In this document: positions 8,280-57,535 of the stretch, in pieces
Numbering within the stretch: position 1 is the first letter of the stretch
Layout: each line of letters begins with the position of its first letter
Assembly (NCBI GenBank): GCA_020059745.1
Contig: JAGVBK010000002.1
Coordinates: 104,301-168,300 of the forward strand
Source: Candidatus Shapirobacteria bacterium
GTDB taxonomy: Bacteria > Patescibacteriota > Microgenomatia > UM-FILTER-40-11
DNA: 64,000 nucleotides
Direction of reading: 5' to 3'
Made by a program: the position numbers and the translations under genes
Notes under the pieces: generated by a model
Told to the model about the DNA's origin: nothing
The model's input: the letters and a program-made list of their open reading frames with translations, nothing else
The model's database searches: none

Positions 8280-8403
8280 TTTTTCACCGATAAAAGCATA
8301 AAATAAATTTTTATACTTTAGTCGATGCGTAACCCGAAGAGTGTTCATTTACCTTATGAAGGTAAACTACTAACCCTCCGGGTTACGCGATCGGCATGCA
8401 ATG

Positions 8404-9549
8404 CTACTTGACAAGTCCCAGATACTGCTCCCGCCAGAATGTGGCTGCAATAGCCATTCCTTCCCACCCTACGGGAATTCTGGCTTTGGGATAGCTTGGG
8501 ATCAATATCAAGTTTGGGTCGGTCGGCACCTCCAGACGCTCTCCGTCGAACGGAAATTCGAACGGATTCCTGATGAAAAACGCGTCTTGGGGAGGTGCCT
8601 GCCAGTTGCCGTTGCCCAGATCGACGAGCCTGACACTCGGTGCAAGGCCGAATGTTGAGCGGATCCACGCTTCGTTCACCTGTGAAGGCGAAAAAGCGGG
8701 GGTCGCACTGGGAACGACGGGCGTTGGGGCAGCTAGCGGAACTGGTGTCTGAGTTGGCACAACTTGGGCTACCAAAGTAGCTGTCGGCTGTACCAAACTT
8801 GAGACCTGACCGATTTGACCAACTGAGGTCACAGGGATCACGCCAGTGATCCTGTGATACTCGTCAATACTGAAAGGCCTGAACGTGATCCCCTGTACAG
8901 GACCACACCAACCAGCAGGAATTCCTGACCCAACTGCTTCTGGGGGAAAACCCTCTTCTAGGGTCCTCCCGTGCAACTCCCGCTGTCTGCGGTCCGCCAT
9001 CCAGCCATCTTGCCGGAAAGGAGTGAAGTTACAAACCTCAATGGAAACAATATTCCCAAAGAGGTCTTTCTCCTCCGGCACCTTCCAGCTCCATGGCTCA
9101 CCCCTAGCCCTGCTAACCTCGCTGGGCTCAATGGACGGCTGAGCCTGTCTCCTTGTTGCAAGGATAACAAACTCATCCACTGACCTTGGCCAATCCTCCA
9201 TGACCTCAAGGCCTAGAACCCTGATGTCGTCCAGAGTCTGACCGCCAGTCAGAGTAAGCCCGAAAGCCTGAACCCTAGGTGACGGTGCCATTGCAACCGT
9301 CGGTTCGGATTGAACAGCCTCCTGACCGGGAGTCGGAGTCACAAGGACCTCAACAACCCGAGTCACTTCGACCGGAACCTCCTTCTCGACAACGACGGTC
9401 TCCTTGACCACCTGAGGGACGACCCTGGTGACCTCGACCGGGACCGTCTCCTTGACGATCTCGGGCGTTGGTGTCAGAGCACTTTCCCTGAGCGCACAAC
9501 CCGTGATCATCACGATAGCCACCATTACAACCAGGAATATCATCTTCAT
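8404..9549 (-). CDS. Lipoprotein, unknown function (GC-rich island)
   Basis: 381 aa. It has a signal peptide with lipobox MITGC and an AGGAGG-type SD upstream. An N-terminal tandem KETV.VEVTRVV repeat and Pro/Thr linkers are present. I recognised no family. Confidence 0.6.
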   Translation of the reverse strand: MKMIFLVVMVAIVMITGCALRESALTPTPEIVKETVPVEVTRVVPQVVKETVVVEKEVPVEVTRVVEVLVTPTPGQEAVQSEPTVAMAPSPRVQAFGLTLTGGQTLDDIRVLGLEVMEDWPRSVDEFVILATRRQAQPSIEPSEVSRARGEPWSWKVPEEKDLFGNIVSIEVCNFTPFRQDGWMADRRQRELHGRTLEEGFPPEAVGSGIPAGWCGPVQGITFRPFSIDEYHRITGVIPVTSVGQIGQVSSLVQPTATLVAQVVPTQTPVPLAAPTPVVPSATPAFSPSQVNEAWIRSTFGLAPSVRLVDLGNGNWQAPPQDAFFIRNPFEFPFDGERLEVPTDPNLILIPSYPKARIPVGWEGMAIAATFWREQYLGLVK

Positions 9550-14359: not shown

Positions 14360-16528
14360 TTGATGGACAGAAACCAAATGACTGGAGAAGAATTACCTTT
14401 CTCATTGATTGAGATCCGTTTACCTAAATCAAGCGAAAAAACCCCGGAAGCGGCGGCTCAGCTTTTTGCGGCCTTTTCCTCCCTTCCTAAAAAGTCTTTT
14501 TTGTCTTTTAAACCTCCAGTAAGCATTTGTTTTGAAATTGTTTGTGTTGACCAGGTCGTCCATTTTCTCATTTCCTGCCCTAAGGAAATGAAAGGTTATG
14601 TTGAAAGCCAGCTTTCTGCCCAATATCCGGAAAGCATCCTTCTGGAAATTCCCAAAGATTATCTTGCCGGCTACACCCAAAACTCAAACCCAAACCTGGG
14701 CCAGCTTACTTTATCAAACAGCTTTTATCTGCCTTTGCGAACCTATAAGGAAGTTAAAGACTCTGATCTTATTTCTTCTGTTTTGGGCGCTATGTCCAAA
14801 GCCGGGCCGGAAGATTTTATGGCTATCCAATTTATTATCGCCCAAGCCGGTAACTGGCAAGGCTATGCCCAGGGAATCATTGACAGAGGAATCCCCTCAG
14901 GAGAGGAAGGAAAAACTCTTCCCCACCCCCAGGCAAAACACATTGCTGAAAAAATAAGCAGCGGTGGCTTTTGGACCGCCATAAGAATCATTGCCAGTTC
15001 AGAAGAACTTCTAAGAAATATTTCCAATTCCTTTTCTTCCTACCAAAGCGATGTCAATGGCTTAAAACTTAAAAAAATAAGCCCGAGAAACAAAAAAAAG
15101 CTGCTTGAATCTTGTCTCAAAAGGTCTTTCGAAATGGCTCCTGCTAACCAGGTTCTTAACCTTGACGAGCTCGCTTCTCTTTGGCACCCTCCATCAAAGC
15201 ATTTGTCGGGCATTAAAAACATCATGTGGACACAAACCATTATGAGTGAGCCTCCCCTAAACCTGCCTACAGCAATCGACCTTAATGAAGCTGACAAAAA
15301 AGAAATCAATTTCATAGCCCGGACTGAGCATAAAAACAAGGTGGCAACCTTTGGCATTAAGAAAAAAGACCGTAGAAGGCATGTTTACATTATCGGGAAA
15401 AGCGGTACCGGAAAATCAACTTTAATTGCCAATATGGCCATAAACGACTTAAGGAACCGGGAAGGTCTGGCAGTTATTGATCCTCACGGCGATTTAACTG
15501 AAATTCTTTTGGATTATATTCCCTCTTTTAGGATAAACGAAACTTGCTATCTTGACCCGAGCGACACCGCCAACCCTTTTCATCTTAATCCCCTTGAGGT
15601 TAAAAACCCGGCCCATAGAGAACTTGTGGCCTCGAATATTGTCGCCATTTTTTATAAGCTCTACCACTATTCCTGGGGGCCAAGGCTTGAATACATTTTA
15701 AGAAATACAATCCTGACTTTACTGCAAACCCCGCAGCCAACACTTCTTCAGATTACGGAAATGCTTTCCAATAAAAACTTCAGGAAAAGAGTGGTTGATA
15801 ACCTCAATGACCCGGTCTTAAAAAGCTTCTGGGTTAATGAGTTTGAAAAAATGTCTGAAAAAATGATGAATGAAGCGGTTTCTCCGATTTTAAATAAAGT
15901 CGGCCAGTTTACTTCCTCTCCCACCATCAGACAAATTGTCGGCTCTTATCACTCAACAGTTGACCTTGAGGGTATCATGAATTCCGGCAAAGTTTTGCTT
16001 GTTAACCTTTCCCAAGGAAAAATTGGAGAAGACAATGCTGCGCTTTTAGGTGCCATGATTATTACCCAGCTTCAACTGGCGGCCATGAACAGGATTAATG
16101 TTGCTGAAGAACAAAGGAGAGATTTTTATCTTTATGTTGACGAGTTTCAAAACTTTGCCACCAGTGCCTTTGTTAAAATACTTTCTGAGGCAAGAAAATA
16201 CCGCTTAGACCTTTGTCTGGCAAATCAGTATGTCGGCCAGCTTGAAGAAGACCTGCAAAAAGCAATTTTCGGGAATGCGGGAACTTTAATTTCTTTTGTT
16301 GTCGGTGCCGGAGATGCAGGCTACATGGCCCAGGAATTCGGCCAGATTTATAAAGAAGAAGATTTAGTTAATCTGGGCATGTATCAGGTGGCAATGAAGC
16401 TTTGCATCGACAACTTAACATCTTCTCCGTTTTTGGCTACCACCATGCCTCTTCCAAGATGCAAAAACCAAAACAGGTCAAAAGTGCTTAAGGTCTCCAA
16501 GGAAAGACACACGGTCAAGCAAAAATAA
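14360..16528 (+). CDS. VirD4/TraD/TraG-like P-loop NTPase (type IV secretion coupling-protein family) with orphan N-terminal domain
   Basis: 722 aa. Walker A is IIGKSGTGKST, followed by VIDPHGD. Walker B-like is FYLYVDEFQNF, with a KYRLDLCLANQY region. The N-terminal ~330 aa have no obvious TM helices and no motif I recognise. Confidence 0.65.
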   Translation: MMDRNQMTGEELPFSLIEIRLPKSSEKTPEAAAQLFAAFSSLPKKSFLSFKPPVSICFEIVCVDQVVHFLISCPKEMKGYVESQLSAQYPESILLEIPKDYLAGYTQNSNPNLGQLTLSNSFYLPLRTYKEVKDSDLISSVLGAMSKAGPEDFMAIQFIIAQAGNWQGYAQGIIDRGIPSGEEGKTLPHPQAKHIAEKISSGGFWTAIRIIASSEELLRNISNSFSSYQSDVNGLKLKKISPRNKKKLLESCLKRSFEMAPANQVLNLDELASLWHPPSKHLSGIKNIMWTQTIMSEPPLNLPTAIDLNEADKKEINFIARTEHKNKVATFGIKKKDRRRHVYIIGKSGTGKSTLIANMAINDLRNREGLAVIDPHGDLTEILLDYIPSFRINETCYLDPSDTANPFHLNPLEVKNPAHRELVASNIVAIFYKLYHYSWGPRLEYILRNTILTLLQTPQPTLLQITEMLSNKNFRKRVVDNLNDPVLKSFWVNEFEKMSEKMMNEAVSPILNKVGQFTSSPTIRQIVGSYHSTVDLEGIMNSGKVLLVNLSQGKIGEDNAALLGAMIITQLQLAAMNRINVAEEQRRDFYLYVDEFQNFATSAFVKILSEARKYRLDLCLANQYVGQLEEDLQKAIFGNAGTLISFVVGAGDAGYMAQEFGQIYKEEDLVNLGMYQVAMKLCIDNLTSSPFLATTMPLPRCKNQNRSKVLKVSKERHTVKQK

Positions 16529-16531
16529 AAA

Positions 16532-16888
16532 CTAGGTTCTTCTTCTGGAAAAATTCAGAAACCGGCAACCATATCTTTTCCTGTGTTCCAAACCCTCCTT
16601 AACCTTACCGCTCATATGGGTGCAGGGCGCGCCCTTACCGGAAGTAATTACTTCAAACAACCTAGCTTTATCTTCTCCTGACAAAAACTCACTTTGCCTT
16701 AGCCTTTCAATTTCCGAAAGCGCTTCAGAAGATAAAGATATGTGGCTGCCAAATTGCTTTTCAATCCTTAAAAGTATTCCACCAAGCATGCCATTACCTC
16801 CCTCCTCAAAATAGCTTTTAACAAATTTTCCAAGCGGTCTAGCGGCAAGATCGCCAGATATTCTCTCAGGTCTCATAGTAATTTTCAT
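16532..16888 (-). CDS. Hypothetical protein
   Basis: 118-aa ORF with no recognised motif and no SD. A TATAAT overlaps the first ATG, so the true start may be Met5 (16876) on a short-leader mRNA. Confidence 0.4.
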   Translation of the reverse strand: MKITMRPERISGDLAARPLGKFVKSYFEEGGNGMLGGILLRIEKQFGSHISLSSEALSEIERLRQSEFLSGEDKARLFEVITSGKGAPCTHMSGKVKEGLEHRKRYGCRFLNFSRRRT

Positions 16889-16926
16889 TATAGCAGTTTA
16901 GCTGAGATTTTTTCCAACAAAAAATC

Positions 16927-16952
16927 CGCCTATTCGGCGGACTTCTTGAAAA
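16927..16952 (-). terminator. Intrinsic terminator of ncRNA candidate 2
   Basis: The minus strand reads UCCGCC-GAAUA-GGCGGA followed by UUUUUGUU. Confidence 0.7.
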
Positions 16953-17232
16953 CAATCGAGAGCCAGAGAGAGAATTTGGATTTGCGGGAAACGCTGGCTT
17001 AGCCAACGAATCTCATCCTCTTTCCTCTCTGGCTCTCACCTCCCCAAAGGGAGAAGATAAAGACATCGGACAAAACCTTCTTCTCATTCTCTCCTCTCCA
17101 GCAGCCATTGATGGAAAAGAAAGGTTTCCTGTGCCCCAGCTCACAGTTAGAGATTGGGTTTCTCCTAGTCTTTTTTTTAAAGGACTCCGCACAAAAAAAC
17201 ACTTTCTGCTTTCTTAGGAAGTGTTTGTGAGG
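16927..17232 (-). ncRNA. Structured ncRNA candidate 2 (unclassified)
   Basis: It is bracketed by a TTGACA-17-TATTAT promoter and an intrinsic terminator. It contains a 13-bp perfect helix (16968-16980 with 17025-17037) and further hairpins. There is no ORF with an SD. Confidence 0.5.
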
Positions 17233-17238
17233 AAGATA

Positions 17239-17267
17239 ATAATAACAAATGCTATTTTTCTTGTCAA
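17239..17267 (-). promoter_or_regulatory. Sigma-70-type promoter for ncRNA candidate 2
   Basis: The minus strand has TTGACA (17267-17262), a 17-nt spacer and TATTAT (17244-17239). Confidence 0.6.
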
Positions 17268-17272
17268 GCCCA

Positions 17273-17300
17273 ACAAAAAACCCGCCTATTCGGCGAGTTC
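17273..17300 (-). terminator. Intrinsic terminator of ncRNA candidate 1
   Basis: The minus strand reads CUCGCC-GAAUA-GGCGGG followed by UUUUUUGUU. The loop and 3' arm are almost identical to the terminator at 16927-16952. Confidence 0.7.
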
Positions 17301-17645
17301 TTTGAGAAAACAAGGGAAAACGGATGGGGTCGGGGGAAGGCAACAATACATCAAGTGGTTTTAAAAACCCACAAAATGTATCTTTACCTTCCCGGGTTCC
17401 CCTTACCCTCCCGTTTGACGGGACCGACAGTTGCTTCTCTTTGGTTTGGTAAAAATACACCTTGCCTGGAGAAGCTGGCCCGCTTTAAGCGGAGCCAAAG
17501 GAAGTAGTCCGAGGATATCTGCGAATAAAAGGCAAAATCCCTCCTTTCCTTCAATCACTGCAGTGGCGGATACAACGCCGGGTCGGGGTAACCAAGCTTT
17601 TGTCTTTTGGGTCAGCTTGGTTTTTTAATCCGTTTTCCCTTTTAA
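17273..17645 (-). ncRNA. Structured ncRNA candidate 1 (unclassified)
   Basis: A 14-bp perfect closing helix (17312-17325 AAGGGAAAACGGAT with 17628-17641 ATCCGTTTTCCCTT) encloses about 300 nt that is visibly GC-richer and has several internal hairpins. A terminator follows immediately on the minus strand. The 5' end and promoter are uncertain. Confidence 0.5.
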
Positions 17646-17744
17646 AAGAACAAAACATTCTTACCTTTGCTTATAAAGATAAGAAAAATGACACTAAATA
17701 AATGCTATATAATTTTTTATTTTCTGTCAATATACACCTTGTGC

Positions 17745-18068
17745 CTAAACCTTTGTCCAGCCGGTTTTTTCAAGCTGGCTTATAAGCTGGGGACAATCGC
17801 CTTCTGTAGTAAGCTGCATCACGAAAGCTCCGGTGTCGGTAACCACCTCGCAGATTTCACCTACTTTTCTGCCCTCTTTATAAAGACAAAGACCGCCTTT
17901 TCTTTCCGTAATCTGCTCAGTGCCATGCCCATTTTGCCGAGAAAATCTGACTTCATGATACTCGTTTCCCTTATCGTTCCAAAAGTTTCCATTGCAGTTT
18001 TCGCTAAAGATACAGTGGTTTATAATCCAAACTGAAGGTTGAAAGTGTCCATTTTCAGGACTTAGCAT
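17745..18068 (-). CDS. Hypothetical small Cys-containing protein
   Basis: 107-aa ORF with no recognised motif and no clear SD. Confidence 0.35.
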   Translation of the reverse strand: MLSPENGHFQPSVWIINHCIFSENCNGNFWNDKGNEYHEVRFSRQNGHGTEQITERKGGLCLYKEGRKVGEICEVVTDTGAFVMQLTTEGDCPQLISQLEKTGWTKV

Positions 18069-18201
18069 AATTAATTTTGATATTTTTCAACAAAAATTTC
18101 AATTATCAAATTAAGCCATAAAAATTGACATTATAGGATATTTATGATAAATTTCTGCCCATCCGTTCATTACGGTATGCACATTCACAACAGGAGGTAC
18201 A

Positions 18202-18729
18202 ATGTACATCCGGGAGTTGCCCGCAGTTGGAGAGCTAGCAAAAGTGCAGGCTCAAATCGTCCGGTATGTTCTGCTCACGATTTTTTTCGGATCTCTCCTT
18301 TTTCTCTCTGCCGCTCTTTTCGGCTCCGACATTGTTTGGAGCTGGGATGGCTTTGATCCCTTCTTGGGAGAAAGAGCCATCGAGGGCCTGGCAATCTCAT
18401 TTCTTACCTCTGGGCTGGAAATGCTCAGGGGCATATTGGTTGCAGGAGAAGTAGTAAAAAGGAAATCGCCCGAGTACTACCTTTTGTGCATCCTTGAAGC
18501 AGTTGCCTATGTAGTTGATATCATTACCAACTACTTGGGCATATCTGTACGGCGAGGAGAGTCGGCCTGGGGCTGGACGAGCGACAATGCTGTCGCCACT
18601 ATAGTCAAGGCAGGACTGGCCATCGTCGTCAGCTTCATGGAAATGTTTGTGTTCTGGTTTGCTGAGGCAACGGCTGTTTGCTCGAAATCTCTACAGGCTG
18701 CTGTAGAAACAAAAAAGCAACTGTCCTAG
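18202..18729 (+). CDS. Hypothetical integral membrane protein
   Basis: 175 aa. AGGAGG lies 4 nt upstream of the ATG. There are about 4 hydrophobic helices. It is followed by a long GC-rich hairpin around 18735-18775. Confidence 0.55.
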   Translation: MYIRELPAVGELAKVQAQIVRYVLLTIFFGSLLFLSAALFGSDIVWSWDGFDPFLGERAIEGLAISFLTSGLEMLRGILVAGEVVKRKSPEYYLLCILEAVAYVVDIITNYLGISVRRGESAWGWTSDNAVATIVKAGLAIVVSFMEMFVFWFAEATAVCSKSLQAAVETKKQLS

Positions 18730-18787
18730 CCTCATACCTAAGAGAGGGGGTCTCTTGTTTTTTTTGAGGGACCCTCTCTCGCCTTGC

Positions 18788-19348
18788 TTAAATAGAAGTA
18801 ATCTCTTCTTCTTTTCTCTTGCTTAATTCCTCTACTCTTCCTGTATATTCATCGGTTATTTTTTGCAAATCGTCCTCTGCTTTAAATTTCTCGTCTTCCG
18901 AAATTTCCTTTTCTTCAAAAGCCGTTTTTATTTCTCTTATCTTGTCCTGTCTTATGTTTCTAATCGCAATTCTTGCATTTTCTGTTTTCTGACTTAAAAG
19001 TTTGACGTATTCCTGTCTTCGTTCCGAAGTTAAAGGCGGCACTGAAATTCTTATGATGTTGTTATCAATTACCGGAGTCAATCCGACATTGGCAGCCAGA
19101 ATTCCCTGCCTTATCTCTCCAATCACTGAAGCATCCCAAGGCTGGATAAGAAGTGTTTGCGGGTCTGAAGCAGTAATCATACCCAAAGCCTGAACAGTCA
19201 TTTTTTGGGTTCCGCCGTAAGCGTTTACGGAGATATTTTCAACCAAAGCCGGCACGGCCCTGCCTGTTCTTATGGCAGAAATTTCCGTTTTAAAGTGGTC
19301 AACGGTTTTCTGCATATCAGCTTTAGTGTCTGAAAAATCAACCGCCAT
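18788..19348 (-). CDS. frr: Ribosome recycling factor
   Basis: RRF-like sequence (ISAIRTGRA...LLIQPWD...PPLTSERRQEYVK...IRNIRQD). The first ATG at 19348 gives 186 aa; the longer ORF starts at a TTG. Confidence 0.9.
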   Translation of the reverse strand: MAVDFSDTKADMQKTVDHFKTEISAIRTGRAVPALVENISVNAYGGTQKMTVQALGMITASDPQTLLIQPWDASVIGEIRQGILAANVGLTPVIDNNIIRISVPPLTSERRQEYVKLLSQKTENARIAIRNIRQDKIREIKTAFEEKEISEDEKFKAEDDLQKITDEYTGRVEELSKRKEEEITSI

Positions 19349-19395: not shown

Positions 19396-19854
19396 TTAGG
19401 CACCAACTTCAAACCTGGCAATTTTGCCGATTTGGATATTTTCCCTGATTTTGCCAATTGCCTCGTTAACAAGGTCTTTAACTTTTTTTGAAGGATCTCT
19501 AATATAATCCTGTTCCAAAAGCTCTTCCTTGTCCTTGGGGCTCATAGCTGCCACCTGCATAGCAAGCTCATGGGCTAAGCTTTTAAATTCATCGTTTCTG
19601 GCCACAAAATCAGTTTCCGAAAGAAGTTCAACCACGCCCACCACTTTTCCCCCGGCATGAGAGTAAACTTCAATAATTCCGGCTTTTGTTTCCCTTTCTT
19701 TTTTTTCTTCGGCAATCTCCAAGCCCTTTTGTTTTATTGCCTCGTAGGCCTTTTCTTCATCGCCTTCAAATTCTTCCAAAGCACGACGGCATTCCATTAT
19801 CCCTGCTCCGCATTTTTCTCTTAATTTTTTAATCTGTTCTGCGGTTACTTTCAT
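19396..19854 (-). CDS. tsf: Elongation factor Ts (short form)
   Basis: It has an N-terminal UBA-like KVTAEQIKKLREKCGAGIMECRRAL motif. It is only 152 aa, so it lacks much of the usual C-terminal module. Confidence 0.8.
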   Translation of the reverse strand: MKVTAEQIKKLREKCGAGIMECRRALEEFEGDEEKAYEAIKQKGLEIAEEKKERETKAGIIEVYSHAGGKVVGVVELLSETDFVARNDEFKSLAHELAMQVAAMSPKDKEELLEQDYIRDPSKKVKDLVNEAIGKIRENIQIGKIARFEVGA

Positions 19855-56755: not shown

Positions 56756-57535
56756 TTATTCACTTTCCCCTACCGGAGCAATTGACCAGTCTTTAATCAG
56801 CCTGGTTTCTTCTACCTGGTTTAAGGAAGAATCCCAAGTTCCGCTTACCCTGACACGGTGGCCCTCTTTAAGCTCGGAAAAGGGAATCTCCTTGTGAGCC
56901 CTATTAACAATTTTAGTGCTCTCTTTAACAAGTACGGCTTGATCCTCTCTTTTTGCCGTCTCAATAACCAGCTTGCCCTCGCTTAGGCTTTTTATCTTGC
57001 CCCAAAAAGTGGCAAACCTCTTTTGTAAGGAAAGATCTCTCAAAATCCTTAATTCAAGTACCGCGTTGTCGCTGTCCTGCCAGGTTCCCCGGGCAGAAAC
57101 AAGATGGCCGACTTTAAGATCAGAAACCAAAGCCTTTCCTCCATATTTTTTAAGAATGACTGTTTTCTCAGTTACCAAAAGCTTAACTTCTTTACTTTCA
57201 TGGGTAACAGTAATTTCGTTTCCGGAAATTACTTTTATTTCTGCTTGGTTAAGTCCGGCCGGAAGAAGCTTTGGGTAAAGTTTTCTTATTCTTTCAAGAA
57301 TTCTTGAACGGATGTTTTGACCTGCCTGGCCTGAAGGCGTTGCCAATCTTTTTTCTTCCGTTATCTCGTTTCTTGCTTCTTCTTTTATCCCTTTAATGCT
57401 TTCCCTTACCTCCTCCTTAATTTCTTTTCTTATTGCATTTTGCATTTGGGGAGCATTGCCCTGGCCAAAAACCTGGGTATTAAAAAGAAAAAGAAAGATG
57501 ACAAAAAAAACAGCAGTTTTCTTCAATGGTCTCAC
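56756..57535 (-). CDS. Secreted protein with two DUF5666-like repeats
   Basis: It has a signal peptide and the repeated pattern S.LK.GH.V...GTW. Confidence 0.45.
   Translation of the reverse strand: MRPLKKTAVFFVIFLFLFNTQVFGQGNAPQMQNAIRKEIKEEVRESIKGIKEEARNEITEEKRLATPSGQAGQNIRSRILERIRKLYPKLLPAGLNQAEIKVISGNEITVTHESKEVKLLVTEKTVILKKYGGKALVSDLKVGHLVSARGTWQDSDNAVLELRILRDLSLQKRFATFWGKIKSLSEGKLVIETAKREDQAVLVKESTKIVNRAHKEIPFSELKEGHRVRVSGTWDSSLNQVEETRLIKDWSIAPVGESE

Follow-up and report, generated by a model that had tools for sequence, protein, structure and literature searches.

Large structured RNAs of the OLE, ROOL, GOLLD, raiA and HEARO classes are hundreds of nucleotides long, contain multi-helix junctions, are richer in GC than their surroundings, possess their own transcription signals and are distributed in a patchy, accessory manner; genomic context does not reveal their function. 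The same features are found in two RNA elements, designated U1 and U2, which are located on the minus strand of a stretch of 64,000 nucleotides (in the following, the window) from Candidatus Shapirobacteria bacterium (assembly GCA_020059745.1, contig JAGVBK010000002.1, positions 104,301 to 168,300). We judge U1 and U2 to be real, accessory RNA genes, probably transcribed independently, which represent one new family each and are neither housekeeping RNAs nor duplicates of each other; the families are new, the general kind, i.e., orphan structured non-coding RNAs, is already familiar. In contrast to the classes named above, with whose covariance models and those of the other large non-coding RNAs in Rfam 15 no match was obtained, U1 and U2 are known from about four lineages of one clade; they are smaller than OLE, ROOL and GOLLD, and neither a known partner gene (oapA, for example) nor a prophage context was seen. 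Large, intricately folded bacterial RNAs without a family are rare, and earlier ones have led to new biochemistry (ribozymes, ribonucleoprotein machines, OLE/ROOL/GOLLD). Full-text literature searches yielded no report on structured non-coding RNAs of candidate phyla radiation bacteria.

Two further described systems resemble the locus in their arrangement. The "morons" of phages and genomes are likewise self-contained units of promoter, payload and terminator, which may occur singly or stacked between conserved neighbours or be missing there; however, the payload of U1 and U2 is a structured RNA and not a protein gene, and the searches revealed no relatives in phages or plasmids. Comparisons of U1 and U2 with phages and plasmids by blastn gave no match, and searches of viral contigs with U1/U2 patterns and a profile of the neighbouring gene orf107 returned nothing real (23 matches to a 17-mer were due to chance). 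Type III toxin-antitoxin systems of the ToxIN kind show the same order of promoter, structured RNA, terminator and small protein gene on one strand; unlike these, U1 and U2 contain no tandem repeats of 34–36 nt, the protein encoded downstream (orf118) matched no toxin or defence model in PADLOC or Pfam, and a separate, conserved putative promoter precedes its gene. The interpretation which we consider probable is that U1 and U2 are distinct genes for structured non-coding RNAs, unrelated to one another, and that each forms a self-contained cassette of sigma-70-type promoter, RNA and terminator, in a variable accessory slot downstream of frr in a narrow Microgenomates clade.

Both units were read by eye within 16700–17900 as back-to-back promoter–RNA–terminator units on the minus strand. 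The two best sigma-70-like sites in 16400–18200 are those directly upstream of U1 and U2, also on the minus strand. The U1 promoter (17702..17730; TTGACA, 17-nt spacer, TAGCAT; 10/12 match) is identical in –35 region, spacer and –10 region in two related loci, L090 and L087; the U2 promoter (17239..17267; TTGACA, 17-nt spacer, TATTAT, with TG upstream; 11/12 match) is 94.9% identical in the related locus L088. Transcription would thus be expected to start near 17695 and 17232, respectively, and to yield discrete transcripts of about 425 nt (U1) and 315 nt (U2). Intrinsic terminators were placed at 17304..17274 and 16948..16918; both form 13-bp stems with 5-nt loops in the folds, and their U-tracts have the correct orientation for the minus strand only. 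A terminator scanner flagged neither of them; in our reading, A-U pairs probably extend each stem into its own U-tract, so that no T-run would be left after the stem. The original prediction, made from the sequence of the window, had described two minus-strand structured RNA units with their own promoters and terminators, and all the features listed in it were recovered at their positions, although the terminators were supported by the folds and not by the scanner.

The core of U1 (17312..17641) is closed by a perfect 14-bp helix, P1 (17641..17628 with 17325..17312), whose arms are 100% complementary and enclose 302 nt according to the repeat finder, as had been proposed (a helix closing about 300 nt). 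P1 surrounds a multi-helix junction, and a 5' hairpin (17658..17685) precedes it in the folds. In the junction, GGGUAAGGGG at 17408..17399 supplies both GGGUA, pairing with the 5' copy of a repeated YCCCCGACC motif, and GGGG, pairing with its 3' copy, which results in UACCC/GGGUA and GGGG/CCCC helices with two CCCCGACC repeats. The core further contains the hairpins P2 (17620..17592), P5 (17553..17526) and P10 (17393..17334; 60 nt, nearly invariant) and the elements P6 (17497..17476), P7 (17475..17433; variable) and P8 (17423..17409); three of the hairpins, one of them variable, lie inside the junction. The inner hairpins CCAAGCU/AGCUUGG and GGAAGG...CCUUCC, which had been noticed before, were present in both the minimum free energy (MFE) and the centroid folds. 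In lineages which possess U1 only, an extra hairpin of about 57 nt is inserted between the 5' strand of P1 and P2 (L090, ~550–606; L087, ~217–276); such behaviour of a variable helix is typical of structured RNA families. The body of U2 (16958..17229) is built differently, from four serial hairpins: the one at the 5' end occupies 17229..17190, a long irregular one spans 17172..17060, a small one lies at 17051..17042, and the last (17037..16958) is closed by a perfect 13-bp helix. The arms of this helix (16958–16970 and 17025–17037) were 100% complementary; thus the predicted helix, like the predicted TTGACA-17-TATTAT promoter of U2, was found.

Folding was stronger than expected from composition, as measured against dinucleotide shuffles. 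U1 had an MFE of –169.5 kcal/mol (z –8.28) and U2 one of –126.7 kcal/mol (z –6.50), and no shuffle folded as well in either case; the plus strand folded more weakly (–151 vs –170 kcal/mol for U1, –113 vs –127 kcal/mol for U2). A sliding 300-nt scan of 14–21 kb showed that 16800–17700 stands out. Pairing is also kept among relatives. A U1 consensus obtained with RNAalifold from five sequences contained 131 pairs, in ten of which both partners had changed in a compensatory manner; 96.6% of cells were paired, compared to 43–53% when partners were slid by 1–3 columns, and the covariation score was 0.166 vs 0.05–0.06 in the slid controls. In the L090/L087 lineage, the 5' hairpin of U1 (helix 1) differs by three wobble changes and one compensatory change. 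Between U2 of the window and that of L088, which are 86.8% identical (frr, 79.5%; orf107, 74%; orf118, 56%), 96 pairs were compared: four compensatory changes and 17 wobble-compatible single changes were present, none was broken, and two A-U to G-C swaps lie inside the 13-bp helix. Since the consensus structures came from the same sequences, the MFE structure of the single window sequence was in addition projected onto the relatives, with permuted substitutions as the control. For U2 on L088, 17 of 22 substituted pairs still paired, and 0 of 2000 permutations were as good; for U1 on L090, 23 of 40 were kept (2/2000 permutations as good).

The 3' ends of U1 and U2 resemble each other. A 44-nt local alignment was obtained between modules at 17313..17270 and 16955..16914, with 82% ungapped identity between 17270–17308 and 16914–16952; both units end in UUGUUUUC..AAGAA, a terminator and GUUGG. 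The core of the module, CGCCGAATAGGCGG, occurs exactly twice in 64 kb (0.18 expected). The alignment of the last ~45 nt was therefore real, as first noticed, and the duplication which had been read from it was not: beyond the 44-nt module, U1 and U2 are alike nowhere in local alignment, their bodies and architectures are unrelated, and each stands alone in sister lineages. Consequently they are regarded as two different genes and not as tandem duplicates. A metagenome scan with the module (GCCGAAYAGGCGGRTTTTTTGTTGG) returned only one sequence, an unrelated tRNA terminator from a GC-rich bacterium (locus L092, 1600–1670), where a tRNA is followed by CTCCGCCGAACAGGCGGATTTTTTGTTGG; this is nearly identical to the shared module, by chance or by convergence, and was rejected as a relative.

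Occupancy of the slot was read from contigs carrying homologues of orf107 or orf118, the genes on either side of the pair. In the lineage of the window (L001, L093, L094) U1 and U2 are both in the slot; U2 alone lies between orf107 and orf118 in L088 and L089, and U1 alone in L090 and L087 and in the truncated loci L091, L097 and L098. In two more distant loci, L007 and L008 (70–75% protein identity), rpsB-tsf-frr and a VirD4-like gene are kept and everything between them is missing; about 25 nt are in the place of the island in L008, and an unrelated small open reading frame (ORF) in L007. The 2.3-kb segment orf175-orf107-U1-U2-orf118 is therefore an accessory island. U1 and U2 were single-copy in the window and in every fetched locus. 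Searches with nhmmer in 86 frr-anchored loci, of which six were from Patescibacteria relatives, gave no match outside the immediate clade, and a weak match at 56771–56886 of the window was discarded as due to chance, being located inside a coding ORF. The distribution was found to be very narrow, about four lineages of one Microgenomates clade, which limits the generality of the finding. The genetics are unusual, in that either or both of two unrelated RNA genes may fill one slot, with the shared terminator module as a boundary. U1 and U2 could have been gained, lost or swapped by recombination, for which the conserved left flank after the stop codon of orf107 and the shared 3' terminator module would be candidate sites.

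Presence and absence of this kind, together with a perfect 14-bp inverted repeat around ~300 bp, could also be expected from non-functional or selfish DNA, such as a miniature inverted-repeat element or the decaying remainder of a mobile element, whose inverted repeats would mimic RNA helices, and the site itself is a variable hot-spot, with an AbiEii-type insertion nearby in L097. We hold this to be quite improbable, since changes in the repeat arms are of the G-U type, which keeps pairing in RNA but not in DNA, and the internal helices co-vary. In addition, the promoters are precisely conserved, no target-site duplication lies beside the repeat, the elements are single-copy in the window and the fetched loci, and the phage, plasmid and viral collections contained no match.

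Whether the region encodes protein had to be considered as well, since a 153-aa ORF (16999..17460, minus strand) is open there; it corresponds to GenBank C4578_02280 (RJR24785.1, hypothetical protein) and was called by three annotation sources (PGAP, IMG and the gene caller of the Logan contigs). The ORF spans the 3' part of U1, the U1 terminator, the U2 promoter and most of U2, and would be impossible where U1 and U2 stand singly. Only two proteins, both of the lineage of the window, make up its cluster, and no Pfam match was obtained. Substitutions were flat by codon position in this frame (16/8/12 and 7/10/13) and indels were of 1–2 nt, ten of them in U2; in contrast, the flanking coding sequences showed 43–76 substitutions in third positions vs ~20 at other positions (frr, 22/17/76; orf107, 20/21/43, the latter without indels), and indels only in multiples of three. 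Small ORFs behind a Shine-Dalgarno-like motif in U1 and U2 were rejected on inspection of the homologues, since frame or length appears to differ between lineages. A protein-coding explanation, by C4578_02280 or by smaller peptides inside the units, therefore deserves hardly any credence. The 153-aa ORF is judged from these comparisons to be spurious, as had been suspected at the outset, and the public annotation is thereby corrected. A protein-like pattern of substitutions in homologues had been named as an argument against RNA genes; the pattern was non-coding, with pairing kept, and the alignments of U1 and U2 can be used for building covariance models.

The original prediction had left the choice between an undescribed RNA family and very divergent housekeeping RNAs. 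The size of U1 (~330 nt within a long terminal helix) would fit the latter, genomes of the candidate phyla radiation are divergent, and 6S-type RNAs are not easily recognised from their sequence, so that RNase P RNA, signal recognition particle (SRP) RNA, transfer-messenger RNA (tmRNA) or 6S RNA might have been missed by covariance models. At gathering thresholds, the matches to Rfam 15 were limited to tRNAs and an L10 leader, all of them at other positions of the window; at E<=10 on 16700–17900 only far-sub-threshold, unrelated matches appeared (best E 0.025, a small nucleolar RNA model, 27/47 bits), and the homologous loci L087, L088 and L090 matched no family at E<=1. Hence neither U1 nor U2 was assigned to a known family. 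ARAGORN detected no tmRNA in the window. The covariance models for RNase P RNA (RF00010/RF00011) gave no match on 16700–17900 at E<=10 or in L087, L088 and L090 at E<=1. The universally conserved P4 strands of RNase P RNA are GGAAAGUCC ... ACAGAA-CCGGCUUA-type sequences; on inspection of U1 and U2, neither these nor the J-region sequences were present, and only a purine run, GGAAAGGAGG, was noted. SRP RNA (RF00169/RF01854) likewise showed no covariance match, its domain IV motif was not seen by inspection, and the only SRP-like hairpin (17475..17433; helices 9–11 of the U1 consensus) is the most variable helix of U1. Like 6S and Ms1 RNA, U1 and U2 would be genes for stable RNAs of an abundant type with their own promoter and terminator and, in U1, a long terminal helix; in contrast to these RNAs, they match no 6S model in Rfam, are not conserved across relatives and have no central bubble, the folds being a multi-branch junction (U1) and serial hairpins (U2), neither of them rod-shaped. 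Furthermore, the island is missing at the locus in L007 and L008 (U1 is missing in L088 too; all these absences refer to this locus), and each unit is dispensable at the slot in close relatives. With no family match in four lineages, a housekeeping role appears very improbable, and of the two choices the undescribed family was retained.

The main rival is a cis-regulatory leader, i.e., a long 5' riboswitch or protein-binding attenuator which would control read-through into orf118. All single-unit lineages show promoter, structured RNA, terminator, ~45 nt and orf118 on the same strand, and orf118 is not preceded by a Shine-Dalgarno sequence. However, TGCTATAAT, an extended –10 box at 16895..16887 (minus strand), is kept between the last terminator and the ATG in all four lineages, which suggests an own, nearly leaderless promoter of orf118. 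What follows U1 in the window is a second promoter–RNA unit instead of a gene; regulation of a single gene would have to be exerted by two unrelated folds; orf118-like genes elsewhere are without such a leader; and no riboswitch or leader family matched. Conserved alternatives of terminator and antiterminator were not seen on inspection of the folds, which was not a systematic search. A leader is thus considered unlikely. A folded RNA acting in trans is preferred because of the size, the junction-rich folds, the conserved unpaired sequence in junction and loops, the own terminators and the TGCTATAAT box.

Several observations weigh against separate RNA genes as favoured here. The position of the units, terminator-ended and directly upstream of orf118, fits a cis-acting leader. 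Ends and stability of the U1 and U2 transcripts are predictions from the sequence. The MFE structure of U1 was kept weakly when projected on L087 (21/43 substituted pairs; 262 of 2000 permutations as good), and the identity of U1, ~80%, is no higher than that of the neighbouring coding sequences. Two or three independent lineages were available per RNA; because there are only about three, covariation is based on one or two comparisons and falls short of significance of the R-scape type. With respect to function, orf118-like genes occur without the RNA, in L122 beside a VirD4-like gene and as a marine homologue in a DsbA operon, and both candidate partner genes are orphans for which fold searches were uninformative.

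As separate genes, U1 and U2 may have a function in trans as stable, folded molecules, binding protein or serving as scaffolds in the likeliest case, and would then be neither base-pairing small RNAs nor cis leaders. Such a protein-binding or scaffold role with orf107 as the best candidate partner is proposed tentatively; orf107 was chosen because it is always adjacent to the RNA, U1 or U2 following it in all four lineages which carry it. More speculative, and in our opinion doubtful, is a wider scheme in which U1 and U2 would be founding members of two RNA classes of the candidate phyla radiation and interchangeable "alleles" (idiomorphs) of one locus, with orf107 products as partners, within an RNA-based accessory, conflict or defence module rather than a regulator of neighbouring genes. 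A purine-rich motif is present in both RNAs, as AGGAAAGGAGGGAU in U1 (17544..17538, minus strand), where its GGAGG lies in the apical loop of hairpin P5, and as AGGAAAGAGGAU in U2 (~17024..17012, minus strand). In U1 of L090 the motif takes the form AGAAAGGAGG and would be complementary over 10 nt to the usual 3' tail of 16S rRNA (the 16S rRNA gene of the host is outside the window). The motif could be due to chance in purine-rich sequence, or could be a contact site for the ribosome or a protein; a ribosome-directed role of U1 and U2 may also be envisaged.

Two other functions of U2 were considered and rejected. A perfect complementarity of 13 nt was detected by the repeat finder between U2 (17062..17050) and the mRNA of orf118 (16678..16666), which would have suggested an antisense regulator; the motif involved (GAAGAUAAAG/CUUUAUCUUC) recurs at 16743..16727 and 17391..17379, only 8 of the 13 positions are complementary in L088, and the match is probably due to chance. 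A sponge for CsrA was suggested by nine GGA motifs, counted by eye, vs about four estimated from composition, but most of them lie in stems.

The genes on either side of the pair are orphans. Directly upstream of U1 lies orf107 (17745..18068, minus strand), and directly downstream of U2 orf118 (16532..16876, minus strand, in a reading of 114 aa). Among 5.8 billion proteins they were found in four and three clusters, respectively, and neither had a match in Pfam, PADLOC, PHROG or NCBIfam. Neither gene is preceded by a Shine-Dalgarno sequence, and in both a –10-like box lies only ~6–12 nt before the ATG (16887–16895 and ~18074–18102, minus strand), which suggests that their mRNAs may be leaderless. 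The ORFs flanking the pair are listed at NCBI as C4578_02275 and C4578_02285 of "Candidatus Microgenomates bacterium". The closest relatives by frr were metagenome-assembled genomes of Patescibacteria and Microgenomatus, and the exact EF-Ts protein of the window occurs also on JGI contig Ga0104761_1000474 (L001).

The island also contains orf175 (18202–18729, plus strand), which encodes a hydrophobic orphan protein, is richer in GC (~50%) and has a strong Shine-Dalgarno sequence, AGGAGG; a bidirectional terminator after it (18737–18780) is common to orf175 and frr. A second dip of the fold z-score (–7) in the sliding scan, at 18300–18800, was considered as a third structured RNA and judged to be coding, since the good Shine-Dalgarno sequence and the hydrophobic product identify orf175, which together with the bidirectional terminator would account for the dip. 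At the position of orf175, L088 contains an unalignable ORF of 154 aa, and orf175 is missing in L097. Further neighbours in the window are rpsB, a short tsf, frr, sortases, CLIPPER-domain proteins and a VirD4/TrwB-like ATPase. The short tsf (19396–19854, minus strand) encodes an EF-Ts of just 152 aa, a short form without the bulk of the dimerisation and core region that is usually present (positions 3–77 of the 204 of Pfam EF_TS were matched). In L097 and L098 a pair of genes for a DUF6922 protein and an AbiEii-like protein, of toxin-antitoxin type, sits between tsf and frr (8397–8923); in this clade, the rpsB-tsf-frr neighbourhood is therefore regarded as a hot-spot at which accessory genes are inserted.

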